From NCBI GenBank assembly GCA_044892525.1, contig CM097885.1, positions 115,134,001-115,198,000 of the forward strand: a stretch of DNA of 64,000 nucleotides. The letters are read 5' to 3'. Both the position numbers and the translations under genes were made by a program. The stretch is from Schmidtea polychroa (Eukaryota). Position 1 is the first letter of the stretch. Each line of letters begins with the position of its first letter. Positions 6,107-53,146 of this stretch are shown one piece after another. A model generated the notes under the pieces. The model was not told the DNA's origin, ran no database searches, and saw only the letters and a list, made by a program, of their open reading frames with translations.

Positions 6107-6185
6107 ATATATATATATATATATATTCGTTACTGGTACAGTTTCGTATTCTATTTACAATTATTTACATTTTATTTGGCTATAT

Positions 6186-11206: not shown

Positions 11207-13601
11207 TTACTTCAACTCTACATCATCTTGTTGGTCTTTCCGTAATTGGCAAAAGTCTAAATCTTCCGCTACCATCAGACATATTCGTTGCATTTCGTGA
11301 TCCACTAAGTCTGGAAAAATAAATCTTGACATACAATCTGCATTTGCGTTTGCTCTTCCTGCTTTGAATTTTATGAATGGTGAATATTCCTGTAATTGCA
11401 TAGCCCATCGCATCAATCTACTGGAGGCTTCTTTGTGTTGTCCGAGCCATACTAATGGTTGATGATCTGTTGTTATACATATTTCATGTCCCCATAATAG
11501 ATATCGAAAATGCTTAATTGCCTGTATTATTGCTAATGCTTCCCTTTCTGTTACCGAGTAGTTTTTCTCATGTTTCTTGAACGTTCTGCTGTAGTAGCCG
11601 ATTACTCTCTCCTTACCTTCATCGTCTAGTTGTCCCAGTATTGCTCCGGCTGCATAACCACTTGCATCTGTCGCTAATAAAAACGGTTTCTTGAAATCTG
11701 GATGTACTAGTATTGGGGCTTCGATTAATTTATCTCGTAATGTTTCGAACGCCTTTTGTTGTTCTGCTCCTCAGATAAAGGAAATATCTTTTTTCACTAA
11801 TTCTTGGATAGGTTTCGCAATGCCTGCATAGTTTTTAATGAATTTACGATAATATCCGCCTAGTCCAAGAAATTCTTGAACTTGAGTGACGGTTTTCGGT
11901 GCTGGACAGGTTTTTATTTTTTTCTATATTTCTGGGATCTGGTTCTTTGCCTTTTGCTGACACTATGTGTCCTAGGAACGTAACCTTCTCTTTTGCCCAA
12001 TCACACTTTGATGGTTTGAGTTTCAATTTCCATTGCCTTAATCGGATGAACACATTTCTAATATCCTCCAAATGTTGTTCAAATGTTGCTGAATATATTA
12101 ATAGATCATCAATATATACCATACACTGCTTGATCCCGTGCGTGACAAAGTTCATGCATCTTTGAAATGATGCTGGGGCATTAGTTAATCCAAATGGCAT
12201 TTTCCTGAATTTGTATAGATCTCGTCCCAATGTGAATGCTGTTTTCTCCTTGTCCTCCTCTTTGACTTTGATCTGCCAATATCCGCTTTTCAGATCTAAA
12301 GATGTAAAATATGCGGCTCCCTGTAACATAAGCAACATCTCATTGATGTCTGGTAGCGGGTATGTGTCTCTTTTCGTTACCGCGTTGAGTTTTCGATAAT
12401 CGATACAGAATCTCTGCGTACCGTCTTTTTTCTTCACCATGACTACTGGAAATTTCCATGGTGAACAACTCGGTTCAATTACTTTTGCGTCTAACATCTT
12501 TTGCACTTCTGCTTCAGCTATTTCTTTTTGTTTTTCTGCTAGTTTGTATAAACGTAATGCGATTGGAGTTTCGTCTATCAACGGTATTGCGTGTAATGTA
12601 ACATCGCATGCTCCCAAATCCAAATCCGAAATGGCGAATATATCTTTATATTCTATCAATAATTGTTGAAGTTTTCCTTTTTCATTCTCTGTTAGCAAGG
12701 TACTATCGATTATCCATAATTCGTCAGTCTTCATGGTGTCGTTGATGATCTTTGGTAATTCAATGTCCATCATCGGTGTTAATCTACCCAATCTTTCATT
12801 CTCATATATGATCTTATCTTCTTCCTCGAAATTCGTGATGTTAATTGGTATTTCTCCTTCTTCATTTATTGTTATTATTTCTCTTGCCAATGGTAATTCT
12901 CGTCTTTTTTCGAATGATTTGCTTGGTTCGAATATGGCTTCTCCTTCCATTCCGGTATCTACTTTTATTTGACATATCATTTGTGATTTTGTTGGTACAA
13001 TTATTTTTTCCGGACATCTAATTATGGCTTTCATCTTGCATATTCTACCCAATTTGTCTTTTAGGCACATTGTTGTTAGATCGATTACCACTTCTTTGAA
13101 TAATTCCGGCATTAAGTCTGTTCCGATTATACAGGGTTCACTCAGTTTTGGTATTACCGCCAGATAGGTTTCGATTTCATTATCTTGATATCGCAACTTG
13201 GTCCGCCATCTTCCCACTACGTCTACTGTCTCTTTGCTGCATGCAATAATATGGATGGTTGTCTGTTCGATGTCTTTCCAATATTTACTGGGTATTTGAT
13301 TTATTGCTATTGCCGATACATTTGCTCCGGTATCTATCATTGCGCTCGTCTCTTTTCCATTAATTCGGATCATGACTGTTACGGCTGAGCCTCCTAGCGA
13401 ACTCATTACTGCTATCGTTCTTACGTCATCAGCTTGGTCTACGCTTTTGGTTCTTCGGGTTGGCATATAATTCATTCCTGGTTGACTTGGTAACTGTGGA
13501 TACATATTTGTGTCATGGTTAAAGCTGCTTGTGGTCCCACGATATCCGGTGGTATATAACTTCCATTGGCTATCCAAGTATTCGTCTTTTCTTTCTCCCA
13601 A
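11207..13601 (-). pseudogene. Protease - reverse transcriptase - RNase H
   Basis: IDTGANVS protease; RFCIDYRKLN, PFGLTNAP, VYIDD; TDASG, EREALAI, TDHQPL, NADCMSR. Frameshift ~11920, TGA 11771-11773, TAA 11207-11209. Confidence 0.96.
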
Positions 13602-15853
13602 TATGGTGCTGTTTCTATTTGCTTTTCGTGCGGGTTTCTACTTGGATATGGGTATTTATCATTTCCGTTATCATCGTCATCGCTATCGCTGCTGTTTGAG
13701 CGATTTCTAAATCTTTCCAGGAATTTTGGTTTGTTCTTCTTTAGTTGTGCTCTCGTGGCTTCGTCATACATTGTTTTCCGGAATCGTCTGCCAACTTCCT
13801 CGTCCGTTCCTTTTATTTTGGTTAATATTTTAATCAATCGTTTTATCCGATGAATGTCTTTTGAGTGGCCGTGTAACAGCATTGTTTTGGCTAAGAATGG
13901 TAGAAATCCCACTATCAATTTCCAATTCACTTTCTTCTCCCTCTTGTATATATCAAAACAAGCTAACATTTGAGTTAGGATTACTCTGACTATTTGAATT
14001 ATGAGTATGATTCCTAATATTCCGGCCATCATTTGTCCAAATACTAAAAATCTTCCCCACATTGCTTTCATCATTTTTGACGTGGCTTGTTGGAAATGAT
14101 CGGGTGACAATAATAGCTCATAATTTGGACCCGTTTGATAATTCGTTCCCCCGGTTATAGTTACCATATTTGACAATATTGACTCTCGTCTGACTGGAAA
14201 AAGTATGTTTAGCCGTGCTGTTTCTAGATCTTCTGGGGAATACATACCTCCGTTTGATACGTCAATGGGTTTGAAGACTTGTTCCGTGGCGAGTTCTATT
14301 AATCCAAACTTCTTGGGCTCCTCTGTTATGGATTTTACCGGTAACATTATCCATTTCCCATCGGGTCTTTCATACAATGGTCCGTACGCATTAGAACAGT
14401 TAAAGAGATTCGGGTAGAAACCCACTGGGTTCATAATTCTGGTGACTGGTTGGACGAATCGGTTTTGTCCTTTATAACGAATTTCTAATTCATTTGCACA
14501 TTTCCCTGATGGTATTGTGGGTTTTTCTGGCATTCGTGCATACGTCTTGGTACACTGATAGGTGTACATTACTTCTCCTACCATTCTTCCAAAATGTCCA
14601 TCTGGTAATGGAAGTGATGGCATCGTATTATCTGGATGCGTTATCGCGATAGCTAGTTTTGTTTTCAGTATCTCTTTATTCAATGAACAATCGTTTTGTA
14701 TCAGATCGTAATATACTTTTTGTAGTGTCGTTTGTCCACGATGAAATAAAAAATCCATTTTGTTGTTGGCGTATAGGTACAGTTTGACGTCTTCTGTGGC
14801 TATCTTTCCCACTGCTCTATCTATTATCTGCCTTGACATGTAGATGCCTGCGTAGTTAGTCTTGGATACTATACTATCGCATTTGGTGGTTTCCTTCTCC
14901 TTGATAAATCTCATGCCCAGGTCTGGATCGTCTGTGATTAGTGCCGTTGGTGTTTTCTGTGTTGAGAGTCTTTTTTCTCTGGGCGATGGTGGCACTGGTT
15001 TTCCGTTTCGCATGTGTACTTTCCCATTTCCATCTTCGTCGTCTTCGTTCTCATAAAATTCTCCCTTTACTTCATTGAACAAGGCACTTTTTAACAGTTG
15101 GAGTCGGCATTTTTGAGTGTTAGCTTCATATATTATGGTCGATACCCCCGTCTTGCATACGTTTTCCGTGGCTTTACATGTTGGGTTGGTTTTCATTTGA
15201 TAATTATTGGCGTCGAATTGTGCCTCGTATTCTTTTAATTCAACGGTGTAAGACTCGATCACTACTACCCCTGATATCACCTCTCCTCTGATCGTATATG
15301 CACCTCCGTTACATGATCCATCGCCTGCGTTTACACGTCCGGCTACATAAATACTTTCTGTTTTAATCATTCCGCTTTGTCCATGTTTTGTTACTCCGTT
15401 ATGCATTTTCATTGCTCCGGTTCTGAAGAGCTCCTTGCAGTCCTCTCTTTGTATGGATACTATTTCTTTATCTAATCCGGGTAGTATGAGATTTGAATAG
15501 GAATATTGTCCACAGTAATATGCGAGTACCCTTTTTGATACCACGCATTCCCTTGCTTGGGTCCTGATAAAATCCGATTCTTGATATACGTGGTATGTGA
15601 CCTTTCTATTTACTATGTCTAACTTGTTCGGCGATGCTTGTCTACATTCTTCTATATCTCTCAGTGAGTATTTGTCTCTCATTATCGAATTATCACAATC
15701 GTAAATTGTAAATCCACCTGCTCCGCTTGTACATAGCATCCATATCATCATGGTCATCATTAGTGAGTTAATTGACGCTTTTCTGCTGGCTGGGTCTTTT
15801 AATGGCAATTCCCATTCTAGTTCGTTTAGTAATTTCTTCAACCTGATTTGCAT
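13472..15853 (-). CDS. Envelope glycoprotein resembling chuvirus/Monjiviricetes class III fusion proteins
   Basis: Signal-like LMMTMMIWMLCTSGAGG, then TIYDC..YSLRDIEEC, ECVVSKRVLAYYCG, REDCKELFRTG, many conserved Cys, and TM anchor WGRFLVFGQMMAGILGIILII. Confidence 0.8.
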   Translation of the reverse strand: MQIRLKKLLNELEWELPLKDPASRKASINSLMMTMMIWMLCTSGAGGFTIYDCDNSIMRDKYSLRDIEECRQASPNKLDIVNRKVTYHVYQESDFIRTQARECVVSKRVLAYYCGQYSYSNLILPGLDKEIVSIQREDCKELFRTGAMKMHNGVTKHGQSGMIKTESIYVAGRVNAGDGSCNGGAYTIRGEVISGVVVIESYTVELKEYEAQFDANNYQMKTNPTCKATENVCKTGVSTIIYEANTQKCRLQLLKSALFNEVKGEFYENEDDEDGNGKVHMRNGKPVPPSPREKRLSTQKTPTALITDDPDLGMRFIKEKETTKCDSIVSKTNYAGIYMSRQIIDRAVGKIATEDVKLYLYANNKMDFLFHRGQTTLQKVYYDLIQNDCSLNKEILKTKLAIAITHPDNTMPSLPLPDGHFGRMVGEVMYTYQCTKTYARMPEKPTIPSGKCANELEIRYKGQNRFVQPVTRIMNPVGFYPNLFNCSNAYGPLYERPDGKWIMLPVKSITEEPKKFGLIELATEQVFKPIDVSNGGMYSPEDLETARLNILFPVRRESILSNMVTITGGTNYQTGPNYELLLSPDHFQQATSKMMKAMWGRFLVFGQMMAGILGIILIIQIVRVILTQMLACFDIYKREKKVNWKLIVGFLPFLAKTMLLHGHSKDIHRIKRLIKILTKIKGTDEEVGRRFRKTMYDEATRAQLKKNKPKFLERFRNRSNSSDSDDDDNGNDKYPYPSRNPHEKQIETAPYWEKEKTNTWIANGSYIPPDIVGPQAALTMTQICIHSYQVNQE

Positions 15854-15918
15854 TGATCTTTCTTGTTCGTTCTTTCGTGGGGCTTGTATCAGCCTTTTCC
15901 ATCCACCGGCGTGGATAA

Positions 15919-18900
15919 TAGGGTGGGTCGAATGTTAATAAATTTTGAGTTCAAGAAAGGAAACATGGTTAAAAAGTTGTATTTTGGTATAGAAAAATCG
16001 AATCAAACCATTTTACTTAGATTTATGAACATTTACTGCTCCCAACTTTTCTCCGAAAATGCAGTTCAACATAAGTGTGAAAACAATGTAATTTGGCTAG
16101 TGTCGGAATGTGTTTTGCGCCTTTGTCCATATTTAGATGTAGCTTTCTTAAGAGCTTATAAGTATATTATTTACTCTCTTGGGCTGAGATAGTATATTCT
16201 GTGTCCTCATCCCGCATTGAAATATATCCTGACAACGTCAGTGATTAGGAAGGGCCAAATTTGAATTATCCTTTTCAAAGACAAAAATCAACTTTCGAAA
16301 TTATTTTTTATTAAAAACATCCAGCCAAAAGTTTAGAAATGTATTAGCGAGGGCATAAAAAGAAGTCACATGAAATCAGCTTTGCTTTGCACCTTGGGCA
16401 ATTCCTTCCTTGATTTTTTACACAGTAGTACCATACCATGTCTGGACTTGTGACCAAACACTTTGCAACTGGCAGAAGAAACATCTTTGATGGCTCTTTC
16501 AACGGCTTGAGAATGACAGGGAAATTGTTCTAATGTAATTTTCTTATTCATCTTCAATTCATGATCCAATATATGAGATAAAAGAGGGGGAGGCGTCAAA
16601 TTACATTTTGTCCAGTCAATCATGTCAACATATGATGTAGCAGACGACTGAAGAAAGACAGTATTCTTGTCCATAGTGCGAATCACTTCGGAAGGGAGAA
16701 AATTTTTTCTTGCAGTTATGATTTTTTCTGTTGCAAACTTTCTGATTTCTTCATCATCATCACCAACAGCAGCTAGGAGTATATTTTCTGGATGTGAGAA
16801 GTAATTGTTGTTCTGAATGACAGGAAAGATGATTTCTTGGTCTGATGGATCCAAATCCTGCAGAAGTTGGAGCATATAAAAAATATTTCTTGCACCATCT
16901 TGGCATGACGAGTGAGTCTTTATATAAAACCATGACGGTCCATAGAAATTGACAATAAATTTCACTATTCGCATGAGAGGTTCAGATGGAGCAGTTTCGG
17001 ACATATATAGTCGCAGAATTATATTAGCTTTCGTTAGCCAGCGACTGTGATTCAAATTTCCTGGTTGTGCCATTTGTAGAAAAGGGACATCCTTGTTGTT
17101 GTGGTACCCTTTCTGGACTGCCAAGCATACTCTGAGGAAATACAATTGATCAGTGTTCAATTCTTTCTTGACATTTTCACTAATATCTACGACCTTTCCA
17201 GGAAGGGACATAAAGGCTACTACGGGCTTGTCTTTTGGATCAAAATCAAGAACGCTTCCTATTTCACCACATGACGTTTTTGGACCTTTTGTTTCTCCAC
17301 CATCGACGACTGAAAAATACTTCCTGAATGGCAATTCATTTGCATGCAACAAGCATATCAGCCATTGTAGAGGTCGCCCTAGGCTTTTTTCGAGTCTTCT
17401 GATTATTCCATTATTTTTTCCGGTGTTTGTATTGGTTGCATCGCACACAATTGCTTGAAGGGTCAGTGAGGACTGCGTGCTAACGATGATTGACATGATT
17501 TCTTTGCCAATATCCACAGCTTTACTACTTTGAGGTACAACATGATCGATATATGTATCCCCTGGAAAGGCGACAATCACATAATGCTCCTCTTTTAGGA
17601 TCCTTCTATGAAGTAAGGTGGAATCTTGTTTCCCGTCGAAACCGAGGTAAATCAAGTTTTTCGCTTCTGCTGAATGCTGTTCAATTTCTCTCTCCCTCCA
17701 GTACTTTCTCTGACGCCGTAATTTTGCGGGATCGATGATTGTTTGAGAGGATAACAGTTCCATATCTTTCAGAAAAGCGTTTACTAGCAAACACGTGTCT
17801 CTGTTGCTCACACTACATCTGTCAACAGCTTTACTTAATTCAGGATAATGTCTTCTATTTTGAAATTCATCACATTCTTCTACGCTTGACTCTGAGCTTT
17901 CTGTTGAATTGTCTAACTTATCTTTACTTTCATCACTAGCGGCTTTACTCTCCGTGTCACTTCTTGAGGTCGGATGTAGATCGTTAACTTCAGTGTCCAT
18001 TATTTCATTTTTCATTTGTTTTCCTTTTCCTGTAGGGCTGCTTTTCGTTTGTTTTCTCTTCAATTTTGAGGTTTCCTGTCTGTCCGTATTTCCGATTTTC
18101 ATGTTTCTGGTAGTTTGTTGGTCAATCCAGAACTCCCACTCTAAGGTAGGAATTTTCAAGGCCAACCGGCATGTACACTGACTTCTTCCACGAGCACCAT
18201 CATTAAAACATTTGCAGCAACATATGTCAAACAATTTGGAAAACGAGCTTAACTTATCTTGAAATTTGGCAGATGACCTCTTGCATTCTGGATACTTCTC
18301 TAATTCACGCACTTTTGATATTAGTCGCTTGACACGAACCACAATACTACTGAACTCAACAGTTGGGATACTTGCCTTCATATAAATTTCCTTCACCTTA
18401 TTTGCGAGAAGAGTTGCTTGTTCGTTAAAGCCAGTATGAAATTGCGTACATTTCTCATTGTAACAGTAATCACGAAACACATCTTCACAAGTAGGTAATT
18501 GGTTTCTGGGTAGTTCACAAGTTTGACCAAACAGACAATGACGTGATTTATTTCTTGTTTTGCGAAATTGCTTATTTCTCTGTCCCTTCATAACTGCTCT
18601 TCTGTACTCAGCTCTGGCAAAATAAAAGTGAATCATCAAGTTAACTTTTTTAATTAGGTCCAGCAAACACTTGACATCCAATCGAAACAAATTAAATTAT
18701 CTGAGTTTAGACTGACTAGTAGTATCCATGTGGATTATATGTTGACTGTAGTATGTGTGTTAGTATTGTTCAGAAGAAATTGTCTTTGTGAGTGCTTGTG
18801 TGAAGGTGCTTCCGTGAATTAACCTCTCTATACATGCACGCGTTAGCTTGGACTTGTGAATAGAGCATATCAAAAATGGTCTTTCTGCAAGCGTGTGACT

Positions 18901-19089
18901 GCTTGCAGGATGAGTTTACAATGGCACGTGTGCGAGCATTTTTACTGGGATAGTACTAATACATACAAACAAAAGTTGGGACCTGTAAACCCTTTTAAAC
19001 AGCAGTCTTTTGCAGGGATATTTCATTTTCTAGCATAAGCACAACTTTTTAGGCATGTTTGGAGAAAAAAAAAATTTCGACCCACCCTA
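15919..19089 (-). mobile_element. hAT-superfamily DNA transposon (probably hATm-like) nested in the LTR element
   Basis: 14-bp TIR TAGGGTGGGTCGAA; 8-bp TSD GTGGATAA at 15911-15918 and 19090-19097. Confidence 0.88.
16366..18690 (-). CDS. DDE transposase, apparently intact
   Basis: FDGKQD, VCDATNTNTG, WLICLLHANELP (CxxH), HSRWLT, YFSHPEN, PCHSQAVER. Confidence 0.9.
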   Translation of the reverse strand: MFRLDVKCLLDLIKKVNLMIHFYFARAEYRRAVMKGQRNKQFRKTRNKSRHCLFGQTCELPRNQLPTCEDVFRDYCYNEKCTQFHTGFNEQATLLANKVKEIYMKASIPTVEFSSIVVRVKRLISKVRELEKYPECKRSSAKFQDKLSSFSKLFDICCCKCFNDGARGRSQCTCRLALKIPTLEWEFWIDQQTTRNMKIGNTDRQETSKLKRKQTKSSPTGKGKQMKNEIMDTEVNDLHPTSRSDTESKAASDESKDKLDNSTESSESSVEECDEFQNRRHYPELSKAVDRCSVSNRDTCLLVNAFLKDMELLSSQTIIDPAKLRRQRKYWREREIEQHSAEAKNLIYLGFDGKQDSTLLHRRILKEEHYVIVAFPGDTYIDHVVPQSSKAVDIGKEIMSIIVSTQSSLTLQAIVCDATNTNTGKNNGIIRRLEKSLGRPLQWLICLLHANELPFRKYFSVVDGGETKGPKTSCGEIGSVLDFDPKDKPVVAFMSLPGKVVDISENVKKELNTDQLYFLRVCLAVQKGYHNNKDVPFLQMAQPGNLNHSRWLTKANIILRLYMSETAPSEPLMRIVKFIVNFYGPSWFYIKTHSSCQDGARNIFYMLQLLQDLDPSDQEIIFPVIQNNNYFSHPENILLAAVGDDDEEIRKFATEKIITARKNFLPSEVIRTMDKNTVFLQSSATSYVDMIDWTKCNLTPPPLLSHILDHELKMNKKITLEQFPCHSQAVERAIKDVSSASCKVFGHKSRHGMVLLCKKSRKELPKVQSKADFM

Positions 19090-21216
19090 GTGGATAATGT
19101 GTGGTTCAATTGTATTTTCGATGATTGTAACTGTCATTTCTACATGATTTGCGAATTGTTTGTTTGGTATCTTCCTTGCAGCTAATCCCATCAAATTGTA
19201 CATTAAATACGTTAGCACTACTAGATGATGTTCATCGTTGTTTGCGTTTAAAGTCAATTGCTCGATCATTCTACTTGTCTCTTCCCAATCTGTTTTAGCG
19301 GTCTTTGTTTTCTCTTTGATTAATTTCGGAATTATTCCGGATATTGCATTCCACAGTTGTCTGGCTTCTACACTCGCTACTTTCCGTTGCCATAGTCGTC
19401 TCAACTGTGGATTGGTTATTATTAGCATATCCTTTACTAACTCCCGTATCCATTTTTCACCTCTTTCGATTGTTGGCTGGGTTTCTTTTAGATCCCACAC
19501 TATTTTGTCCAGTTTTTCTAATCTGGCTTGCCCTTGTTCTTGTTTTAATTGTTCTCTGGTTTTGAATTCGGGGTTTTCGCCTTGCTTCTTGGGTCTTCCT
19601 TTTACCCGTTTCTCCATCATTGTTCCGGCTTCTCTCGTCATTTCGTAACTCGGGTTTCTCTCATTATCCGTTCTCGGCAATGAGCTATCATTGTTTCTCA
19701 GCCATTCATTCCATTCATCTATAATTTTGTCATTTTTCCCCTCCGTTGGCAGCTTGGTTGGTTCTTGTAATCTCTTTATTTGTTCATCCGTTTCAGTTTC
19801 TGTTGTATTATCCATAATTTCCTCAATACTCAGTTTATTTGGTAGTTGATAACTAGTGGATGGTTGGTTTGTTGTCCATGTTTCTGCTCCTGTCGGCCAT
19901 CTCACTAGAATTGGCGATCTTTCTCCAGCTTCTTCGTCACTATCTTCCAATATGATCTCCTCGATCTCTTCAGTTTCATTTGATTTGCTTGGCACGTTGT
20001 CAGGGCTTGGTGTACTCAAGCTACCTTTCGTGGGTTTGCTGGATTTGGTTTTCCTTTTGATTGGTTTTCCCAATGTTTCTGCCATTGTCAATACATTGAT
20101 TTCCCCCAGTCTCATGGGTGTTATTCCGACGTCTGCATTATCATCTAATGATTTTCCTTGCAGTTGTAGATGGAAAGGAGTTTCATATGCTAATTTCTTT
20201 TTTAATTCTCGGATTTTTGTGGTTGGATGCACCTCTACTTCCTCGACATTTTTATCTGGGTATTTAATTCGAATTCGATATCTTTCTTGGGTGTCTTATG
20301 ACCATTCATGGGTTCGCCATTTCCCGATGATTTGCTCCAATTGTTCCGGGTACCATTCGTTGTACTGTCGGTATTCTTCTATAGTCTTTACTATTTCTCT
20401 CAGATAGTGGATGTTGTCTGATACTTTTAGAATGAAGTTAGCCAATGCTATTACTTGTCGTTTTTGATTTTTCACTCCCATTATTAAGATATCACCTAAT
20501 TGTTTATATCTTTCTCTCTCTTCTCGATCTCTTGCTTCTATCGCTTCTTCACTGTCCATATCGGCATATTCACGTTCCTTCTTTCTCATTGCATGAATGT
20601 GTCTGGTTTCCGTTTCGCTTTCGGACGTGACATCTGTTTCACTTTCGTCATCTGATTCCGGTTCTATTTTGTCTTCTTCGTATTTCGGAGGTTCATCTTC
20701 CTCTTCTTCTGACTCACTTTCTATCTCACCGATGTCGGTTTCTACGAAAATTCCTTTCCTAATTTCCCATTCTTTATTTTCTGCATTCCACATCCAAGGG
20801 GTTCGTCTGCAAGATCTAGTACTCAGTTTCTTTATTTTCCCTTGTAGTTCTTTTTCGTTTAGCCACTGTTGATGCATTTCAATTATCTCTACTGATTTTT
20901 GGTATAGCGTTTTCATCCTATCTCGTATCTCTTTCTGGTAGGTCACATCTCTTGTGCGAAATTCATCCATGGGTAATATCCTGATTATTTGATGATTATC
21001 CCACATGCCCATTTCGCTTAACGAGGTGTCGTCCTCAGCTCGTAATATTATTTTGTCGTACATCATGACTACATCATCTATCATACCGTCGCTACTTTCA
21101 CTTCGTACCTTTTCCGTTATCTCTTGGTTTATCTTTGCTACCAAGTCATCCACCGTACTCTGGTTGCTCATTTTTATTCGTCGCTTCTCCTCGTTCGGCA
21201 ACCATATGGTTATTTC
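19090..21216 (-). pseudogene. Gag extension, part 2: ubiquitin-like domains 2 and 3, acidic repeat, Bcl-2-like region
   Basis: The 20296-21201 and 19087-20232 ORFs share a frame across one TAA and rejoin the flanking ORFs when the insertions are removed. Confidence 0.7.
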
Positions 21217-21624
21217 TAAAAAAAAAAAAAAAAAATCAAATTTTATTTTAATAAACCATCAGGCCCATCGGGCATAAGGGGAGATATTCTCGACCCTTTG
21301 AAATCTAAAGCTTTTTTTTCTGTTAACTGGCGAACGCTGAGCAGGTGCTCAAGCGTTAAACGAGAGGTCTGATTGGTTGATGTTGAAGCTTCTTGAGACA
21401 AGCTCCACTTTCATATAATAAAGATATTTTGGGTATAAATAAGGTTATGCATGGATATACAGTATTATATATAGGATATAGTTGGTGAGTTTTTGGTAGT
21501 TCAGAAGAATAGTGGGTAGACGAGGTGGGAGGTACAGGTACTACAGTGTGAGGTAAAGGGTTAGAGGTTGGAAGACATATGGTAGGGGTTTAATAGTATG
21601 TTAGGTGTGAAGGTTTTGGGTGAA

Positions 21625-21830
21625 GAGGTTGATGGAAGTTAGAGGTTGGAATGTAGAGGTTGGAATGTAGAGGTTGGAATGTAGAGGTTGGAAGGTAGAG
21701 GTTGGAAGGTAGAGGTTGGAAGGTAGAGGTTGGAAGGTAGAGGTTTGAAGGTAGAGGTTGGACGGTAGAGTTTGGACGGTAGAGGTTGGAGGGCATAGTA
21801 TTGAAAGGTAGAGGTTTGAGAGTAGGTTGT
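21625..21830. repeat. 14-bp minisatellite (tagaggttggaagg)n in the LINE 3' UTR
   Basis: About 12 tandem copies visible. Confidence 0.9.
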
Positions 21831-21999
21831 AGGGTGAAGGTTTCTTAAGGCTATTTAAAGATACGGTATAGGCGGGTAGAAGTGGGAGAGTAGAGGTTGA
21901 AGGATAGGTGAAAGGTTGTTTTAATTATTGTTTTTTTTTTAAATATTAAATATAAATAAGCAAATATAGGAATGAGGCAACACAAGAAAAGAGACGCTT

Positions 22000-22660
22000 G
22001 ACTGTTCAGGGTTGGTTGGGTTGACGCTTGACTGGTCAGAATTGCCGGATTGGTCATTCACAGTTAAAAACACATATAACAAAAGAGACTGGCTGGGTTG
22101 AATGGGTTGACGCTTGTCTGGTCGGGATTGCCGGATTGCTCATTCACAGTTAAAAAACATATATAACAAAAGAGACTGGCTGGGTGTAATGTGTTGACGC
22201 TTGACTGGCCAGGATTGCCGGGTTGATCATTCACAGTTAAAAAACATATATAACAGAAGAGACTGGTTGGGTTGGTTGGGTTGACGCTTGACTGGTCAGA
22301 ATTGCCGGATTGGTCATTCACAGTTAAAAACACATATAACAAAAGAGACTGGCTGGGTTGAATGGGTTGACGCTTGTCTGGTCGGGATTGCCGGATTGCT
22401 CATTCACAGTTAAAAAACATATATAACAAAAGAGACTGGCTGGGTTGAATGTGTTGACGCTTGTCTGGTCGGGATTGCCGGATTGCTCATTCACAGTTAA
22501 AAAACATATATAACAAAAGAGACTGGCTGGGTTGAATGTGTTGACGCTTGATGGCTGGGTTGGTTGGGTTGGCGCTTGACTGGCCAGGATTGCTGACTGT
22601 GTTGGTTGGGTTGAGGCTTGACTGGTCAGGATTGCCGGATTGATCAGTCACAGTTAAAAG
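22000..22660. repeat. 86-87-bp tandem repeat in the LINE 3' UTR
   Basis: ttgacgcttg recurs at about 22021, 22107, 22194, 22281, 22367, 22454, 22541. Confidence 0.9.
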
Positions 22661-22808
22661 CACATTGATGGGCAGGTGTCCAGTATGTCCTTGTATCATT
22701 GGGTATTCAACACGGTGGGTCCTTTCTATTAAATAAGTCGGTTGCCCGAGGAGGTGCATGGTATAGAATAATGGATATATTGTTTTTATTATTGTAATCG
22801 TTATTATT

Positions 22809-23025
22809 NNNNNNNNNNNNNNNNNNNNNNNNNNNNNNNNNNNNNNNNNNNNNNNNNNNNNNNNNNNNNNNNNNNNNNNNNNNNNNNNNNNNNNNNNNNN
22901 NNNNNNNNNNNNNNNNNNNNNNNNNNNNNNNNNNNNNNNNNNNNNNNNNNNNNNNNNNNNNNNNNNNNNNNNNNNNNNNNNNNNNNNNNNNNNNNNNNNN
23001 NNNNNNNNNNNNNNNNNNNNNNNNN
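22809..23025. other. Assembly gap (217 N)
   Basis: Run of N. Confidence 1.
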
Positions 23026-23228
23026 TTGATACTATGAATACCAATATCAAAAATCTTGTTGCTAATATTAAGAGCTTTGCATTCATACGCAACACTCAGT
23101 ATAGAAAATTTTTAAATCTCATCATTGCATAGGGATAATTAAAATTTTGTATAATAGGAATAGTTTTGATATAAATATGGTAATGCTTTGACAGTTAGAT
23201 AATATATAGAGAAATATGGGGGTGTGTG

Positions 23229-25965
23229 TTAGTCTTTGTATATGTGTTCCCTATATATGTGGTAGCTGCTGACTACGGCTGCTGTACAGGCTCTTTTTGC
23301 TAGAGCCTTAATTTCAGCTCTACTCAGACCAATTATTCTGAGGTCTTTGTCATTCTTCCTGTCCCAGGTACCGAGTGTACCAATAACGAGGGTAAGTAGA
23401 GAGGTCTTGCAGTTGTGTGCATGACCTATATCGATTGCTAGGTGTTTGTATTTCTCAAAATTATTATTCCTAGCTTGTTCAAAGTTTTTTTCACTTTCGT
23501 AAGGGACCTTTATGTCCAGGATATGAATCAATTTGTTCCGCGGGGTTTTGATAAGGAGGTCGGGGATGAGGGTGGTGTTGATCCCCATTGGGGTTTGTTC
23601 GATGTCTATATCGTATTTATGCTCGAGGAGGAAGTCGGAGACAGCTTGGAGGACATTTCTATGTTTGTTTCGGCGGGCATTGGATTTAGCAGGGCAGTGG
23701 TTAAATATGTGTGCCTGTGTTTCAGGATGAGCGTGGCAATGCCTACATAGGGTAGATTTCTTGGATTTAATTCGACGGGGCGTATAGTTTAATTTTAGGA
23801 TGTTGTTGCGTGCTCGGATCAGGAAGATAAATTGCGGGTCAGTTAGGATGTCCGTTTTAAAGAAGAAACTAGCGATGCTACTGCTACCAATGCTTTTGGC
23901 TATATGTCCTTGGCATTTCATTTCGGACCATCTATCAGCATAAATGAGGCTAATAATAGAGTGTATTTCGGATGAGGTGTCTTTAAGGTTGGAGGATGTG
24001 AAGTAATTAATTCGGTCTTTGTATTTAATTTCTAATTGGTAGGAATTTTTGAGGAAGACTATTTTAGTGGAGATGCCATATTTGAGTCGTAGTCTTATGG
24101 ATGATTTCCTGAATTTCGAGAAGAGAGATTTAGATGGAAAGTTTTTAGTGGAGTCGCCATTTAACCAGGAGATTGCAGAGTTGATGTTGCCATTTCCTCT
24201 GGCTTGACTGAGTTCGGATAGGGCGAGGTTGCGAAAATCAGTGTCAGTTGAGTTGAGGGCACGTATGAGGTGGACAATTCCCTGGATAAGGTATTCATCA
24301 ATGAGGGATGTTAACCCCAGTCCCCCAAGTTTGATGGATGCATATAGGAAATTGTTATTGAGCTCGCAAATTTTATCACCAATGGCATTTTTGATTATAG
24401 ATTTTAGTCTTTGGGTGGCGCCTCTATGGGGTATACCTGCATTATTTTTAAGGTTTCTTTCGGAGTCGAGAATACTGTGGTGAATTTCGCAGTTGCGGTA
24501 GATATAGGTAAGGCGAGAATGTATGAAAATTTGTAGGCATTGAGTTTTTGAGCAGGGTGCAGATGGGAGGCTAGAATTGTTTTGGTATCAGTTAAGGCAT
24601 TTTCAAGTCTCTCCTCAATGTTGTGCCTTACCTTATACGTGAAATCAACTCCAAGGTATCGGTAGAGGTTAGAGTCATCAATTCTGGGGAGGAGTTCGTC
24701 ATAAAGGCGGATTGGGCTATAATTGTCATCATGGTTGATATGAAAGTAACCGGATTTCGAGGGCTTAAATCGAAGGTTAACTTGTGAAGCCAGTTGTGTC
24801 GTTTCGCAAAGTGCTAGGTTTATAGAGTAGTACGAGTCAGAAATTAGTACAATATCATCGGCATAGGCAAGGATGCTAATGTTGTGCCCATGGAATAGAA
24901 AGGGATGGTGTTTTAAGACATGTTGAATTATGAAGTCTATACATAGGCAAAAGATTGTCATAGATAAGGGGCATCCTTGCTTAACTCCTTTAACAATGGG
25001 GACAGATGGGGAACGTTCTCCTTCACATTCAAAAATAGTTTGTACATCATTATACATGTCATTTATAAGTTTGATTGTATTTGGGTTGAGTCCCATATTG
25101 GTGAGAGTGTGCCATATAAGAGAATGGGGTAAGGATCCAAAAGCATCAGAGATATCGAGCCATATGATATGGAGGTCAGTTTTATTACGGATTGCAGCAT
25201 CTTTGACAAGGTGTAAGGTGAAATTGTGTTCAGCACATCCATCAGGTGCACATGTAGCCTTTTGGTTGTTAGACAGTGGGTTGCCGAGTTTTATCCAGCT
25301 CAAGAGGCGATTGTTTAGAAGTGAGGAGAATATACGGTATGAGGTGTTCATGATAGATATGGGTCTCCAGGAGCTAGCTTCATGGCTAGTCTCGGTCTTT
25401 CCAGCTTTTAGAATTAGTTTGGAGCGAAAGGTTTTCCAGGACATAGGGCAAGTAGTTGTGCGTAGTAGGCTGTTAAACAAGGATAGAAGGAATTCAAAGT
25501 CAGGTGATAGGATTCTCCAGTCAGATAGAGAGATGCCATCTATACCTGGGGCCGTATTGCTGAGTTGCTTGAAGATTGCCTTAATTTCATCGATGTCGAA
25601 AGGGTCGCAAGAGAGAGTTTCAGGAAGTGAGGGTAGTTCAATCAAAGGATTAGGCGAGCAACTTGCGAGTGTTCCAGCAAAGAGTTTAAGAATATTATCC
25701 ATAGTAGGTCTCTGGAAGGTTGGGGTATTTCTCAGGATCTTTGCGACTTCCTCCTTTGGGTTAATGGTATATTTTTTCTTTTTAATGAAGAGTAATTCGT
25801 TCTCATTACGGATTTTTTTATGTATTATGTCAGAGGGTTTTTTGGTAGTATATTTTAAAGGGTGGATGTTTGCATTTATTTTTTCCATTTCGGAAATAGC
25901 AGAGTCGGCATCAGTTTTGTTTTCGATGAGATTAAAAATAATATTCTTTATAAACTGCGGTTGTG
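23229..25965 (-). pseudogene. LINE RT + CCHC + restriction-like endonuclease, frameshift ~24530
   Basis: APGIDG, WRPISI, WLDISDAFGS, GVKQGCPLS, AYADD, YLGV, GGLGL; CRHC..ETQAHIFNHC, PDL..DIKVPYE..KY..GTLGTW. Confidence 0.92.
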
Positions 25966-27070
25966 TTTCTTTTAACCTTCCGTATTTGTGAATTAAATTT
26001 ATGGTTCTCCAGTTGCTCATCCTGAGTAATTCTGTATCGCGCAATTGGCTCATTAGTTCATGCATGGCTGGGGCTTGTCTCGCTATAAGCAAATCCCAGT
26101 TATCCTCAACTTGTTCTTGGATTTGCTTGATTAATTTATCTAAATTTCGTCGTAAAGTACATTGTTTTAGTTGTTCTAGTTTCAGCTTGATATTAAAATC
26201 GTATTCCGCCTTGGCGTCTTTAGCCCATTCGTGAATATTGGCGGGTTGCCTCTCCTTATGCAACTTCAATATTTGCGTTTCTCCTGGCCAAATTAATGCA
26301 TCAATTAGGTGCATATCTGGTCGGATTTGTTCTCCTTGGTATTGATATAGATACTCTTTCTTCCTCGAGCTGCCTAAATGCTCTCTTATCCAATCGAACA
26401 GTTCGTCCGTAACGGTATTTTTTATCCATATTCTCTCGAGTCCTTTACTTGTTCCGATCTTTATTACATAACGTATTGTATCTGCTTGTTTCATTTTTTC
26501 CATATACTTCTTTATTATCGCTTTCTCCTCGCTTGGTATTAAATCTTTTTCGTTTCTTTCCAGTTTCATTATCTTTTGTATGAAACGTCTATATGGTATA
26601 ATGTCAATGAATTCCTGGTTTCTTACCACCACTGGAAGTATTTCTTTTACTTGTTTTATCGCTTCTTCTCTTTCTTTTCTCAATTTCATCTCGATATTCT
26701 CATCTTCACTTTCGCTTGTTACATCACTTTCGCTCTCATCTTCATCTCCTTTTACTTCAATCTTTTCTTTTAGCTGTTCAATGTTTTCATTTAACTGTAA
26801 TATTTCTCCACCAAGGCTACTCACATAATCCTCCTCGTCATCCGTTGAAAATACTTTCTCTGTCGTCTTCATCACATTAATTCGTAAATTTCTCATTCTT
26901 GGTACTTTCTTTAGCTTTTTATTCTCGAATATTGTTAGTTCCTCTGAGTCTAATTCTTGTATCATCTCATGATTTAGATGGTTACTCTGTTTCCCGTTTT
27001 CGTTATTTTCCGTTTCCGCTTCTGTTTTGATTTTCTCGTGTTCCCTTTCGATTTTATCTTTTATCTTTTT
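25966..27070 (-). pseudogene. Gag extension, part 1: acidic coiled region and ubiquitin-like domain 1
   Basis: In frame with gag after a single TAG (27071-27073); UBL-like YQYQGEQIRPDMHLIDALIWPGETQILKL. Confidence 0.7.
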
Positions 27071-28990
27071 CTAGAATATTTTCTGAATTCTCTGGTTTCC
27101 CTTTAGCGGTGTTGTTGAATTTTCTCTTTTGCTTTCTATCATTGTTTCTTTTGGCTTCTCTGGTTCGATCATAGGTACAACTCTTGGATTTTTACCGTAA
27201 TTATAACAATATTGTTCCTTTATGTCTTTCACCATTCTCATCATATTTATCCTTAACGGTTGTTCTTGTCGTTGCCGAATTCGCTCTTGTTTTATTCTTT
27301 CTTCGTCAGCTTGTAATCTCTGCCATTCTTGTGCGTGTTGTTGTGCTTCATAATTGTTGAGATTTTCGGTGCTCCTTATCATACGTATATTCTGAGTTTG
27401 TTGTGGTACTTGTTCTTGTCTTGGTCTCATCATTTGTTGCATCATCTGCTTCATTTGTGAAATTTCTTGCATTACATTCATTTGTTTTCCCTCACTGGGG
27501 TTACTTTGTCGTTGCGGATTCGATGCATAATTATTATTTCGCTGGGGTGGTCGTTGTTGTTGGCTTCTTTCTCGGCACTCCCTCGAGATGTGACCTGGTT
27601 GACCACAGTTAAAACATGTTCTCATTTGGCATATATTTTCCGTGTGCCCTCGTCGTCCACACCTACTACAATTTGCGTTTCGGTAACAATCTCTATCCCA
27701 ATGCCCTAGTTTTCCGCATGTTCGACATTGTTTATTTTCGTTCATATTCCTCCTATTATTGGAGTTACTCCCGTTATTCATATTGTTACGATCGCTACTA
27801 TTCCCACTAGGTCGTCCTTGTGGTGGTTTGAAAATTTGGTGTGCTCCTGGTATAAATTGATTCATCTTTGGTTCATGATTGTTATGATCGCCATTCTCTG
27901 TTTTTGCCGTTGCTGTCGCGATTCTCCCCTCTTCTTGCATGACATTCATTTGCGCTGGGAGGTGAAGTTCGCATCTCGTGGCCCAATCTATGGCCTCTTC
28001 CAAGGTCTTACACATTTGGCATCCCACCGAGGCTCTTACCTCCTCTCGGCGAAGTCCTTCTATAAAATAACCAACAGGTTTTCCTCCGGTAAGTTTCCGT
28101 TCATGGCTTTCTTTGCTAATCTTCGCAATTCGCTTGCATATAACGTTATCGACTCGTTGGCTCTTTGTTTTCTACTTGCTAGTTCGTTTAATGCTTGATT
28201 TATCGGTTTGCTGGCTCCGAACGTTCTCCTCAAAAATGTTTTGATGCTTTTCCAATTGTTCAATGTCGTATTTCTTTCTTTCTCCTCTAGATACACCTCG
28301 AGTGCGCTATCGCACAAAAATAAAGGCATTCGTTTACTGATTGCTTCCTCTGTCCATCCGCACACCGTTGTGTAAACTTCAAAGTTGGTTATAAACGCTG
28401 CTAATTTATTCGCATTCCCATTGAAGGGTTCGCCTCTGAATTTCTCCTTATACTCTTCTGGTTTGCTAACATTCGTCATGATCGGTTCTTGAAGTTCTAC
28501 GATTTCTTTTAAATTATCTAACGATGTGGCTAAACTATGGGTGGATAGTTCTTCTGTTGATGCTGTTAGACTGTTCGTTATATCGGTTATACTTTCTCTG
28601 CTTCTAGATCGGCTTGGGGTAACTCGGGTTGTTGGGTTTTCTTTGTCGTCTATTGGTATTCTGGTTGTTTCGTTAGGTCCTTGCGATAATCCTCATTTAT
28701 GGCGATTTGATCTTGTTCTTTTGATGCTTTGCAATTGTTCTACTGAAAATAATGTATCGTATTGATTACTTGAGGATCTGAGCGCTCTTGAATTAGCCGT
28801 GATTTTTTCCTGTTGTCCCTTTGTCTCCTCTTGGTTTTTCTGTACTTTGGGCGGGTCCGACTTGGTTTGGATTGTTGGTTTCTCCGAATTCCTCCTGTGC
28901 AGGTTCTGAAATGCCTTAACTGGATTGCTTTTTCAGTCTTCTTCGGGTTCCTTCTGGACTGGTTCTGAATTGACTTGGTTGTATTGATAT
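27071..28990 (-). pseudogene. Gag: capsid-like domain and three CCHC zinc knuckles; frameshift ~28070
   Basis: EPFNG..AFITNFE; YFIEGL..TLEEAI after frame correction; CRTCGKLGHWDRDC, CSRCGRRGHTENIC, CFNCGQPGHISREC. Confidence 0.9.
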
Positions 28991-30450: not shown

Positions 30451-30930
30451 CTAACTGAAATAGATCGTGTGCTTCTCTTTTATTACACATGTACACATAG
30501 AACAACGGATTAGACTGGCGGCGCATTTGTCACAATGGCTAAGGTGCCCACAAGGTAGAATCAGAATTCTGGCAGGTCGTGTCTTGCAAATGTTGCACGT
30601 TCTCAAGGCCGCTGCTTTTTCTATGATCAAGACTCGTATTCTCTTAGACAGAGTTTTCACTTGTTCGCGGATTCTTACGTATTCAATATTCAAGGCGGGA
30701 TCGTCGAGACGTTGCTGCATCCATTGGTAGTGGATAGATAAATCAGTATCGTTATTTGTTGATCCTAATCTGTCCGTTAAAAAGTTTTGCTTGGACATTA
30801 GTGGTGCGTTGTGGCGTTGTTGTTCTAGGATCTCTATTTGTTGCAATTTCTCCCTTAAGGTCTTTAGTGAATCGTTTTCTATGTCGACGAACCGGCTTAG
30901 TCGCTGTAAATGTTGTCGGGCTTCTGACAT
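30451..30930 (-). CDS. Accessory protein with C-terminal IAP/MDM2-type RING finger (putative E3 ligase)
   Basis: CNICKTRPARILILPCGHLSHCDKCAASLIRCSMCTCVIKEKHTIYFS* at the extreme C-terminus, as in IAP RINGs; no BIR domain seen. Confidence 0.85.
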   Translation of the reverse strand: MSEARQHLQRLSRFVDIENDSLKTLREKLQQIEILEQQRHNAPLMSKQNFLTDRLGSTNNDTDLSIHYQWMQQRLDDPALNIEYVRIREQVKTLSKRIRVLIIEKAAALRTCNICKTRPARILILPCGHLSHCDKCAASLIRCSMCTCVIKEKHTIYFS

Positions 30931-31424
30931 ATCTAAATAAATGTGTTGTCATTACTCGGTCTCACTTACAAAAATAAAAATAATATAATTGTGTTGTAAT
31001 CAATATTCGTTTGGCTTTTATTCGCTATTGTTTCTAGTTTATGTGTTTTATTCAATCTTTAACACTTCCCCCTTTTTAATTTAATAAATTAAAATTAAAC
31101 AAAATTAGCCAATTCCCGTTTTCTTTTCTCATCATACTCAATCATTAGACTCATTTTTATTCATGCATACTCCATTTCAGACACATATTGTTCGTATTGT
31201 CATTTATTACACTATAATATCACACTGATTCGGTTCGGTCCCGATTTCGTTATTATCATAATTAATTAAATTATTAAATTAACACCTCATAATACAATAA
31301 TAGGCAGTTAAACAAATCAAATTGAGTGAATCCCGGCTGAGCCCCCAAAAATCATGTTGGCATATGAGGGAGAAGAAACCCATACATACATAACCGTCAA
31401 CATACCAGACCTCATCGTTTAGCT

Positions 31425-32960: not shown

Positions 32961-35452
32961 TGTTGTAGGGCCAGAAATTCGGTAGCATTTATATTTATTT
33001 GTGTAGAATCAGTCCTGATAAATGAAAGTATTGCGAACTATATTTTATAATTAATATATTAGGAATTAAAATATAATATTTTCCAAAAACGCGCCATGCT
33101 CGTTGTCGTGGTGACGCCTACACGTGTGTGTTTGTATGTCATGTTTCGTCTCTACGACGCGGCTTATCATGCTTACTGGATCAGTCTGGACTCATGCCTT
33201 TCAAGCAAATTCATCTATCCACTCTCTCGCCCTTACACACAGTTCTACTATCCTGAGCAATTACGATTACGAAATTATGATGTCATAGTGTAGTTTACTA
33301 TCCAGATTTATTACCATCCTACTGAGATGCATTCTATTTTAAGGCGTAATAATGCGTGTATTTCCGAGACACAGTCGATTAAGATTTCTACTAGAAGTTT
33401 TATGAGCAACCATATTCTAGATGGTAGATGACCAATTCGGGGGATAATAGGTGAACTGGTGTTGGAAATCTAATTTTTATCGTACGGACGACTCAAGATA
33501 ATCACTTGTCAGTGCATCAACTGAATAAGTCAGTACGGAAATTGGTATCTTATCATTCCTACCAGATTCCCGTCGGTCGTTTAATTCTATTAGCCACAGT
33601 TTGACTGAAATTCATTTATCAATTATCTGACAACCTCGACCGCGGCTTCCTAATGCAATTAACAATTTACCGATGACACTGTCAGTGGTTGATCTCATCT
33701 CTATCGTCGATAGTCCGATAATTGCTCATGATTTATTTACCTTATTTGCAGAAAACGGCGCTTATCAGAAATCCGAGTGTCAACAATCAAGGCTATAAGT
33801 ACATCCCCTATGGGTTTCATCGCTAACGTGCTGGCAATCCAAATCAGACGATATCTTATGAATTTACTATGCTGCAGACAAACAGTTGGATTTAATCGCA
33901 AACGGTGATTGTCAAGATTCTTTCTTAGCTACTCTGATCGTCAGGCTGATTTTCCTGAAAGATTTTCCTCAATCTATGTGAAGTTTGTTTGGATCTATCT
34001 AAACACTCATATCCATCTAAATCCGGATTAACCTCTGTTGGGAGTTCAAGCTTCCTATACGAATATCAGAAATCCCGATATAACTGAACGAAATGATAGA
34101 ATTATCCTCCTAACGATCGCGCTGAGTGAAGGAAAATTTTTACTCCGCAACTGGATTTTTCCATCTACCGAGTCTCATCACCCCTCATGCACCGTCATGA
34201 GGGACCAATCAACTCCTTTACATTCAAAAAAAAAAAATTAAACATTCGTATAAAAGTCATAATAATGACAGAATAAATGATGAGCAAAATAAACAAATCG
34301 AAATACCCGGCGACCATATCATCTGGGCTCCAAGTATGATGCTTTTCCCTTTTCGATCATATATTCAATTTCAGCATTTGCAAACATCTCATTGATTATT
34401 ATCACCTTCTCCAGTCCTAATATCTTCGCAACATCTCCTAGATGCATGCCACAAAAACTCCTCGTGGCTACTTCCTCCATTTGGCATCATACTTGAAATC
34501 ACCAGAGGGTATAGTCGTCGGCACCATGAAGAAAGGCAGTTTCTATTTTCAAATAAATTTATTAAATGAAATTATTCTTATTATTTACAAAAATTTACTA
34601 AAGTCAATCATAAATATCTATTAAATTCAATCATATAAGACTAATCCATAAATAACTTAACATACTTCGAGGTTTGAAAAACTGGAGTTAATCGGTTAAC
34701 GCGAAGGTTTTCTTGAGTAAGTTTACTGAGCTTCTTCCTAAAATCGATTTGGTTGTTTTTGAAATTAGTCCTTCGTAGTAGTTCGTAAGTCAAGTTCTGC
34801 AATCGTGAAAATTAAAGTGGTTCCTGAATGTCGTCCTGTAGAGTTTGGTTAAAAGTGGTTGTTCAAATTTAAAAATTTTACCTGTAGAGTTTGGTTAAAA
34901 GTGGTACTCTACTAATTTTTCGCGTTTCTTATATACTATTTTTTCGTCCAATCAGGACTCAGTTAGGTTGTAATTTTTATATTTATTATTATTTAATGTT
35001 TTTATTATAATATATTAGCCTTTAATAACTTAACTTATTTCTTATTATTATTTTATTTATTTTTCTTATTCTTATTATTTTTCTCCTATTTTTCCTGCTG
35101 ATTTATGGTTACTTTATTGCCATATGATTTTTTGTTTTAATTAGGCTTAGAGATATTTTTATTTTTATTTATTGCTTTAATTTCTCGTTTATTTTCTCTC
35201 ACTTTTTCGTTTATTCTATTTCTACTTTACCCGCTGGGTGCTTTAAATCCTTTCTCTTTTGTCTTCGTTCCAATTCTTAGGGGTTTTATTTATTTATTAC
35301 TTATTCTTATTTCTTTTTATGGGTATTTTATTGTTTCCTTATTTACTATTGAGGTTTGATGGTAATTTATCTTTTATTATATTTTGTTTATTTTTCGAGG
35401 TTCGCTTCCCGATTCAACCCAGTTTTTCTCTACTTCAAAATTTAGCCCAACA
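32961..35452 (-). repeat. 5' LTR, about 2.49 kb
   Basis: Right end is fixed by the repeat boundary (TGTTGGGCT on minus). Left end is inferred from plus-strand TGTTGTAGGG at 32961, which gives TGTTG...CAACA termini. Confidence 0.8.
34877..34952 (-). promoter_or_regulatory. LTR promoter: CCAAT box, TATA box and downstream 5' splice donor
   Basis: ATTGG/CCAAT at 34948-34952; GTATATAAG at 34936-34928; CAG|GTAAAA donor at 34882/34881. The same layout occurs in the related LTR at 43.2 kb. Confidence 0.65.
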
Positions 35453-35862
35453 ATAGTCAACTTTTATTCTGCAACTCCATCTGCAAACAAATCTTGATAC
35501 GATGATGAAAAGACACTGACACACAAGCACAGCGAGTAAATCGAGATCCTTATCGACTCACGGTAGAGTGTGATGCAACTAGACGATGCCCACGAAATAC
35601 CCGATAACGTCATGACGTCTCCCAGTAGATAATAATTTTTTATTACTCAACAGAGCATGAGGATAATTGAGTGAAATTAACATGAGGTCCACGAATGCAC
35701 ACCAGATAGAAATCTGAAACTAATGCATGTCTACACACAGTTAAGCGTCACTATGATGACAATTACGGTGTGGAATTTAAATAGTTAAACTTTTAAATTA
35801 TAATAAAAAATATATTTAAATTAACAACTTGTGATTTTACACCAATCTATCCCGGTTTAACA
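35453..35862 (+). mobile_element. 3' part of a related LTR into which the main element inserted
   Basis: Patchy similarity to the distal main LTR (acacacag..gcgtcac..), followed by ORF-X and the motif in the same order. End coordinate is tentative. Confidence 0.45.
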
Positions 35863-52409: not shown

Positions 52410-52790
52410 GGTGGATGGATTTCCGTTGTTATTCGATGCAATAATTGTGATGTAGTAGCTACACAAAGAAAGGTTCCAGATAAAATGATTGAGAAGAGTT
52501 CAGCTACAAGATTATTTAATATTACTGAAAGTACTGGAGGTGTTATGACTGGTATGATCCCTGATTATCGATCTCAAGTATGTCGTGCACAAATGGAAGC
52601 AGCTCGATTTAGATATAAAAATGGATATGAAATGCCTTGCGGCATAATATGTCGTTCTATTGCGGATATTAAGCAGCTTTCTACCCAATCAACTGAGATG
52701 CGACCATTAGGTTGTTCAATGATGGCATTATCTTATGGTATGGACATGGACAAATTGTTGTTATTCAAAACTGGCTCTGTGGATGGAAAT
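52410..52790 (+). pseudogene. PSMA6: Proteasome subunit alpha type-6 fragment
   Basis: TQRKVPDK..LFNITES.G.VMTGM..D.RSQV.RA..EAA...YK.GYEMP..IADI.Q..TQ..EMRPLGC; lacks N- and C-termini. Confidence 0.85.
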
Positions 52791-53146
52791 AAAATTATTA
52801 TGCTTTATCTTGAATTTAAACATGAACAATAAGTATAATCAACATTATAATCGCTATATCCCATATACGGAGTTTTCCTACTCCAATCCATTAAACCTTT
52901 AGATAAAATGATGAATCACCAGGAAGCCTCGAATACAAGCCTAACCGAAAAATGACAGCAACCTTGGAGTAGCCAATACACAGAGTTGATTATCTGAATC
53001 TAATCTATGAATGAATGTCCGGTGTATCTGTATGGCCATGGCTAGCCATGATTATCTATTATCATGCCTGAAGATGCTTACCGGAAGAAGTAACGACGTA
53101 CAAATGTGGGAGTTTATAACTCTAACATTAAAAGATTTAAAGAATT

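Follow-up and report, generated by a model that had tools for sequence, protein, structure and literature searches.

Burro/GYPSM1 of Schmidtea mediterranea is an element of more than 30 kb that encodes Gag, Env and Pol in one frame, with three zinc knuckles and with Bcl-2-like, ankyrin and MATH/TRAF cargo (PMC6431247). Its Env lies in frame between Gag and Pol, a Ubi2/SUMO-like motif has been noted between MATH and BCL-2, just before the latter, and about half of the polyprotein had no annotation until remote-homology searches were made (PMC6431247). In the accessible part of a second paper Burro is used only as a source of expression markers (PMC8532177). The GAG-ENV-POL errantiviruses with a gB-type Env, reported in Platyhelminthes, have the same gene order and envelope class as the element described below (PMC13524379), and the main text of that report, in its accessible part, mentions neither Burro nor ubiquitin nor Bcl. 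Here we describe a stretch of 64,000 nucleotides of Schmidtea polychroa (assembly GCA_044892525.1, contig CM097885.1, positions 115,134,001 to 115,198,000 of the forward strand; hereafter the window), in which a single minus-strand long terminal repeat (LTR) element spans positions 1 to approximately 35450. Its LTR parts at 1–1647 and 33845–35453 are 97.5% identical and 33.8 kb apart, insertions counted in, and in another copy the LTR measures at least 5.4 kb, which gives the size above 30 kb and the long LTRs of a Burro-type giant Gypsy element. Pfam matches follow one another in the order Retrotrans_gag, zinc knuckles, a weak ubiquitin match, a Monjiviricetes-type fusion protein, protease, reverse transcriptase, RNase H, integrase, ankyrins and a TRAF-like open reading frame (ORF), with a RING ORF upstream. 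As in Burro, Env is in frame between Gag and Pol, a Bcl-2-like domain precedes it and ankyrin and MATH/TRAF cargo is present, and from this architecture the element is likely a planarian Burro-type giant Gypsy element with Gag-Env-Pol order. It departs from the published description in two respects. The accessible text on Burro describes one Ubi2/SUMO-like motif (PMC6431247), whereas we find three such segments, each with a helical bundle, and MATH lies outside the present ORF, a TRAF-like ORF being found downstream; in a sister protein, P0115, MATH is located between the second and third of these units.

The three segments are found in the extension of Gag on the minus strand at 26255–26470 (segment 1), 20971–21213 (segment 2, extending to 21219 as a UBL part) and 20080–20280 (segment 3), where a first-pass annotation of the window had placed them. 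Structure predictions and profile comparisons indicate that they are very probably ubiquitin-fold domains (UBLs) without a conjugation tail, and that each belongs to a duplicated module, which consists of a predicted bundle of three to four helices followed by the UBL. This repeated unit exceeds what the first-pass annotation had described. The bundles, all on the minus strand, correspond to positions 26480–26668 in module 1, with three helices in the AlphaFold2 (AF2) model, 25956–26143 in module 2, also from an AF2 model, and 20296–20514 in module 3, where AF2 places four helices at residues 2–73 of the module model. The span 20083–26476, initially treated as one feature, thus has its segments in place, but the region 21220–25955 inside it is a non-LTR insertion and a stop precedes segment 3.

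A beta-grasp fold was predicted for the three segments with differing confidence. Segment 3, which likely corresponds to the Ubi2/SUMO-like motif noted in Burro, is modelled with good confidence and superimposes on ISG15 at 1.8 Å; its match to the Pfam ubiquitin family (PF00240, E = 4e-4, 20.5 bits) lies under the gathering cut-off of 25.4. The AF2 model of segment 1, a likely beta-grasp, shows the complete strand-strand-helix-strand-strand order at moderate confidence (predicted local distance difference test, pLDDT, 53–67), every Foldseek row listed is a UBL fold (best E = 2e-3, residue ranges not given), and the ESM Atlas returns ubiquitin/SUMO-like clusters at 0.90. Segment 2 is a probable beta-grasp that was modelled in part, with the first four elements present, the last strand missing and pLDDT below 45 at the C-terminal end; its ESM Atlas matches are UBL clusters at 0.88–0.90, and module 2 gives a weak match to Pfam PI3K_rbd (E = 0.005). 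Segments 1 and 2 alone have no ubiquitin-family Pfam match. The hydrophobic core positions of the UBLs are mostly kept, and 9–12 of 76 residues are identical to host ubiquitin.

The internal duplication proposed in the first-pass annotation becomes evident at the level of the bundle plus UBL module, through profiles, and not among the UBLs compared in pairs. The direct UBL–UBL signal was rejected, the pairwise scores being reached by 529, 187 and 108 of 1000 shuffles. With leave-one-out profiles built from nine modules, near orthologues excluded, modules 1, 2 and 3 outscored 999, 1000 and 1000 of 1000 shuffles, respectively; segments 1 and 2 were thus tested on the basis of nine modules. When the halves were scored alone, significance was reached only for module 3, the helical part of which was equalled by none of 1000 shuffles; the helical part of module 1 was not significant, nor were the UBL parts of segments 1 and 2 (54 and 107 of 1000). 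The module profile retrieved ubiquitin, ISG15 and Mdy2 from the PDB, where a family-only profile, diluted by the inclusion of full-length P0115, did not find any UBL. These UBL-only and family-only results, together with the absent pairwise similarity and the low confidence of the model of modules 1 and 2 (mean pLDDT 50, no Foldseek match at E ≤ 0.001), are what would be expected if only segment 3 were a UBL and segments 1 and 2 were unrelated alpha/beta domains resembling it by chance. We regard that as highly improbable in view of the whole-module tests, the independent ESM Atlas matches of segments 1 and 2, the weak matches to beta-grasp Pfam families and the two clear modules seen in sister families. 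Segments 1 and 3 were modelled from alignments that included the other modules, and their models are for that reason not independent of the module idea.

The module lies between the zinc knuckles and the Bcl-2-like/Env region in all four families sampled in this genome, in 3, 1, 2 and 2 copies. The three further Env-bearing families were sampled through Bcl-2 and Env profile matches, and in them each UBL (one, two and two) is preceded by a helical segment of approximately 70 residues. P0115 is 32% identical to modules 1 and 2 over 473 residues, after which come MATH and then the module 3 bundle. Given this position of MATH in P0115, segment 3 is likely the motif that was published as lying between MATH and BCL-2, with modules 1 and 2 left unnamed in the accessible text of PMC6431247. 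A module-profile search of 1.84 billion representatives gave 245 matches, and among the best 150 of these most match the UBL half only, while about a dozen span bundle and UBL. Four of 16 database proteins scanned carry zinc knuckles, one of them with Env and protease as well, and in the polyproteins P0009, P0011 and P0113 the module likewise follows the zinc knuckles. The only published trace of the repeated module that we found is the single motif of PMC6431247, in its accessible part; more UBLs may be annotated in Grohme et al. 2018 and in the Repbase entry of 2007. This class of element and one of its UBLs had thus been published before, and the interest of the locus is moderate partly for that reason, while the three-fold array, the bundle plus UBL unit and its variation from one to three copies were not found in print.

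Conservation was followed in other copies of the element, for which 781 Mb of the genome were searched, with most matches on four large contigs; 29 distinct copies of the 39 listed were used, one having been dropped as an identical duplicate and nine left out. All three UBLs are under purifying selection. The pairwise ratio of nonsynonymous to synonymous substitution rates (dN/dS) over the 29 copies, which are not independent of each other, is 0.061 for UBL 1, 0.031 for UBL 2 and 0.097 for UBL 3, compared with 0.020 for the Bcl-2-like domain, 0.05–0.13 for the bundles and 0.2 for acidic patches. No C-terminal di-glycine (GG) follows segments 1, 2 and 3 in the 29, 28 and 28 of 29 copies, respectively, that matched the locating pattern, and the earlier proposal of integral, non-conjugated domains is supported by this absence in all copies examined. 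The Leu8/Ile44/Val70 patch of a conjugatable modifier is not kept in the UBLs: the position of Ile44 is occupied by Gln in segment 1, by Met or Asp, depending on the alignment, in segment 2 and by Gln in segment 3, and it varies across families (16 aligned rows). The best-kept UBL surface across families, judged by eye, is instead an acidic and aromatic stretch corresponding to ubiquitin residues 51–60. The module therefore adds a case of a retroelement reusing the ubiquitin fold without the tail or the patch.

These observations bear on the function suggested in the first-pass annotation, namely that the segments are ubiquitin mimics acting as decoys or recruiters for the proteasome, p97 or the endosomal sorting complex required for transport (ESCRT), or processing signals read by deubiquitinases. 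Integral UBLs in cellular proteins do recruit the proteasome or p97, and the predicted ubiquitin fold and a weak Pfam OTU1_UBXL match of segment 3 (E = 0.1) are consistent with such a role. We nevertheless consider it improbable, given the missing GG, the residues at position 44 and the low identity to host ubiquitin. The Ile44 patch is what many ubiquitin-binding domains recognize (PMC4276913), and since it is not kept here, mimicry toward the proteasome or ESCRT is disfavoured. As to processing signals, the lack of GG is joined by protease-like motifs that suggest self-cutting by the element, and another LTR family in this genome keeps a near-host di-ubiquitin with its tail, which is how a processing signal would look. 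That family, BEL/Pao-like by eye, carries the di-ubiquitin in frame upstream of Gag with the tail of the first copy intact, as at loci L105–L107 (C1:18608000-18612500, C3:118947500-118952500 and C1:15637500-15642500); a phosphatase-like piece lies further upstream in some copies, and many such di-ubiquitin matches occur in long frames.

Ubiquitin-fold domains are known from other viral polyproteins. The ubiquitin insertions of bovine viral diarrhoea virus (BVDV) act as processing signals. Like them, the window UBLs are ubiquitin-fold domains inside a polyprotein, and BVDV insertions are sometimes accompanied by duplications (PMC13517609); unlike those host-ubiquitin-like inserts, the window UBLs share few residues with host ubiquitin and end without GG. 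The coronavirus nsp3 Ubl1 domain, described as docking the nucleocapsid, offers an analogy only, as an integral, non-conjugated UBL of a viral polyprotein, and it also has a neighbouring acidic region. It belongs to an unrelated class of virus with which homology is not shown, and the window UBLs differ from it in being arranged in tandem, each behind a bundle.

An acidic motif occurs twice in the extension, as originally annotated, at 26705–26737 and 20614–20646 on the minus strand, and its core is kept in 23 of 29 and 29 of 29 other copies, respectively. An exact repeat of the seven-residue core arose in 10–17 of 3000 composition-keeping block shuffles, so that the repeat exceeds what chance would give. 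Comparison of the acidic motif, helix and UBL 1 with the UBL 3 counterpart gave a score reached by 14 of 1000 shuffles with the motif and by 87 of 1000 without it. The motif was rejected as proof of module duplication, as the two copies use different codons at 6 of 10 shared residues and the motif is not kept in P0115; this latter absence makes it weak evidence for an old duplication, and the repeat may be a later local copy or a convergence.

The protease-like motifs provide a possible route by which the modules could be set free. In one copy, a short motif class is present 6 times in the frame from Gag to Env, where 0.29 occurrences would be expected; a looser form of it marks the protease and integrase borders, and protease-like motifs are found at domain borders of Gag and Pol. 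Putative own-protease sites on the minus strand lie upstream of module 1 (26861–26881), where a similar motif is aligned in P0115, and upstream of module 3 (20581–20601), where P0115 has a similar motif at the same place by eye. If these are sites of the element's own protease, two products would be expected, one comprising modules 1 and 2 and the other module 3 with the Bcl-2-like domain. The aspartic protease of the element would thus likely release the modules, which may then act as protein-docking adaptors in its own replication, most plausibly by linking the Gag shell to a membrane-anchored Env precursor. A docking role is favoured because the place of the module is constant across the clade, whereas the MATH/TRAF cargo shifts between ORFs. 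Taken as a whole, UBL modules released by the protease and docking in replication form the best explanation at hand, though a tentative one, and the adaptor role as such is possible rather than probable. A soluble-sized, strongly conserved module present one to three times across the Gag-Env-Pol clade gives a testable handle on particle building or host engagement.

Several points, in addition to the UBL-only tests and the poor model of modules 1 and 2, count against replication docking. The entire ORF is constrained (dN/dS 0.078 in the linker, 0.12 in the extension and 0.08–0.12 in the flanks), so that the UBLs are not singled out by selection. The pattern for protease sites was picked once the sequence had been inspected, and one strict match to it falls inside the last strand of UBL 3. 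Module copy number varies and the Bcl-2-like domain intervenes before Env, both of which fit an accessory role equally well. The short hydrophobic segment ahead of Env (15800–15935), which continues from the Bcl-2-like domain and may serve both as an anchor in the membrane and as an internal signal sequence, is below a 19-residue hydropathy threshold in the window family. By eye, this segment is more hydrophobic in three sister families.

The accessory role just mentioned would make the modules modulators of the host that work together with the Bcl-2-like, TRAF/MATH, RING and ankyrin cargo, damping cell death or ubiquitin-dependent signalling through a surface other than Ile44. Module 3 would be freed in one piece with the Bcl-2-like domain, P0115 carries a MATH insertion that separates module 2 from module 3, TRAF-like, RING and ankyrin ORFs are part of the same element, and interference with apoptosis and ubiquitination has been proposed for Burro (PMC6431247). 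On the other hand, the module is steadier in position than MATH, P0113 has a module but no Bcl-2 Pfam match, and the fold matches show no standout likeness to a particular host signalling UBL. We therefore hold host modulation to be somewhat unlikely, although it ranks close behind replication docking.

A further possibility concerns the helical half of the module, which by eye recalls what we take to be the fold of the TFIIS N-terminal domain (TND) and the LEDGF integrase-binding domain. A TND-like bundle could, with an AT-hook-like motif, act as a chromatin or integrase tether or as a mimic of transcription elongation factors, the UBL being a stabilising partner. The bundle does have four helices in about 70 residues, hhalign places 49 columns in register with host TND sequences (E = 0.049), and several members have a basic, AT-hook-like motif behind their last module (matched by Pfam AT_hook in P0060, E = 0.027, and seen by eye in the others). 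However, the hhalign probability is just 1.1% with the invariant TND glycine in a gap, hidden Markov model scores against host TNDs do not exceed 3.7 bits, none of the modules scanned has a Med26 Pfam match, the PDB profile search returned no TND, and two of the four families show no evident AT-hook-like motif. The fold searches were made with whole modules, and the matches listed were to UBLs, in rows covering residues 76–146 only. A TND-like bundle is thus distinctly unlikely, and no more probable is the broader idea that Burro-type elements encode a LEDGF-like tether, in which an amplified bundle plus UBL with an AT-hook would be released by the protease and would then hold integrase or elongation factors on chromatin.

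The copy in the window has been altered by secondary insertions, and a premature stop at 20296–20298 splits segment 3 from segment 2, whereas in 24 of 29 other copies all three segments lie in one stop-free frame. The minus-strand insertion at 21220–25955 (4.7 kb) is a non-LTR retrotransposon with reverse transcriptase and zinc finger (Pfam RVT_1 and zf-RVT) and, by eye, restriction-like endonuclease motifs; it is followed by tandem repeats of 87 bp and 14 bp and by a run of T and lies outside the module array proper. It separates segment 2 from the second helical region, its flanks align to two other copies on either side, and an empty-site pattern is seen in 13 of 13 copies (L003–L015). The frame of segment 1 continues directly into the reverse transcriptase of the insertion, giving a chimeric frame of 888 amino acids that joins the Gag extension to it. 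A DNA transposon occupies 15936–19074 (minus strand); it has inverted repeats at its ends and a target duplication of 8 bp and contains an ORF of 776 amino acids without a Pfam match.

The remaining parts of the polyprotein, all on the minus strand, include the capsid region of Gag at 28063–28692 (Retrotrans_gag, PF03732, E = 5e-9), the zinc knuckles and start of the extension at 27074–28171 (zf-CCHC, E = 3e-11) and Env, a Monjiviricetes-type fusion glycoprotein between the Gag extension and Pol, at 13475–15934 (PF24664, E = 9e-73). The Bcl-2-like domain at 19090–19521, with an AT-hook-like basic motif ahead of it, is cut near its end by the DNA transposon; the region has no direct Pfam Bcl-2 match and was assigned by homology, through a sister family that matches PF00452 at about 29 bits and aligns to it. 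Many dispersed Bcl-2-like matches elsewhere in the genome (C1:50168106, C1:34775875 and others) share one in-frame TAG within the match. The TRAF-like ORF downstream of Pol (4937–6154) combines RING, zinc fingers, a coiled coil and a truncated MATH, and the RING ORF (30451–30948) is contained in the long LTR of another copy. Outside the element, the window contains an exon of a host proteasome subunit at 52185–52832 (PF00227), unrelated to the element, and large nested inverted repeats at 53900–60900, the arms of which are 98% alike over approximately 630 bp.
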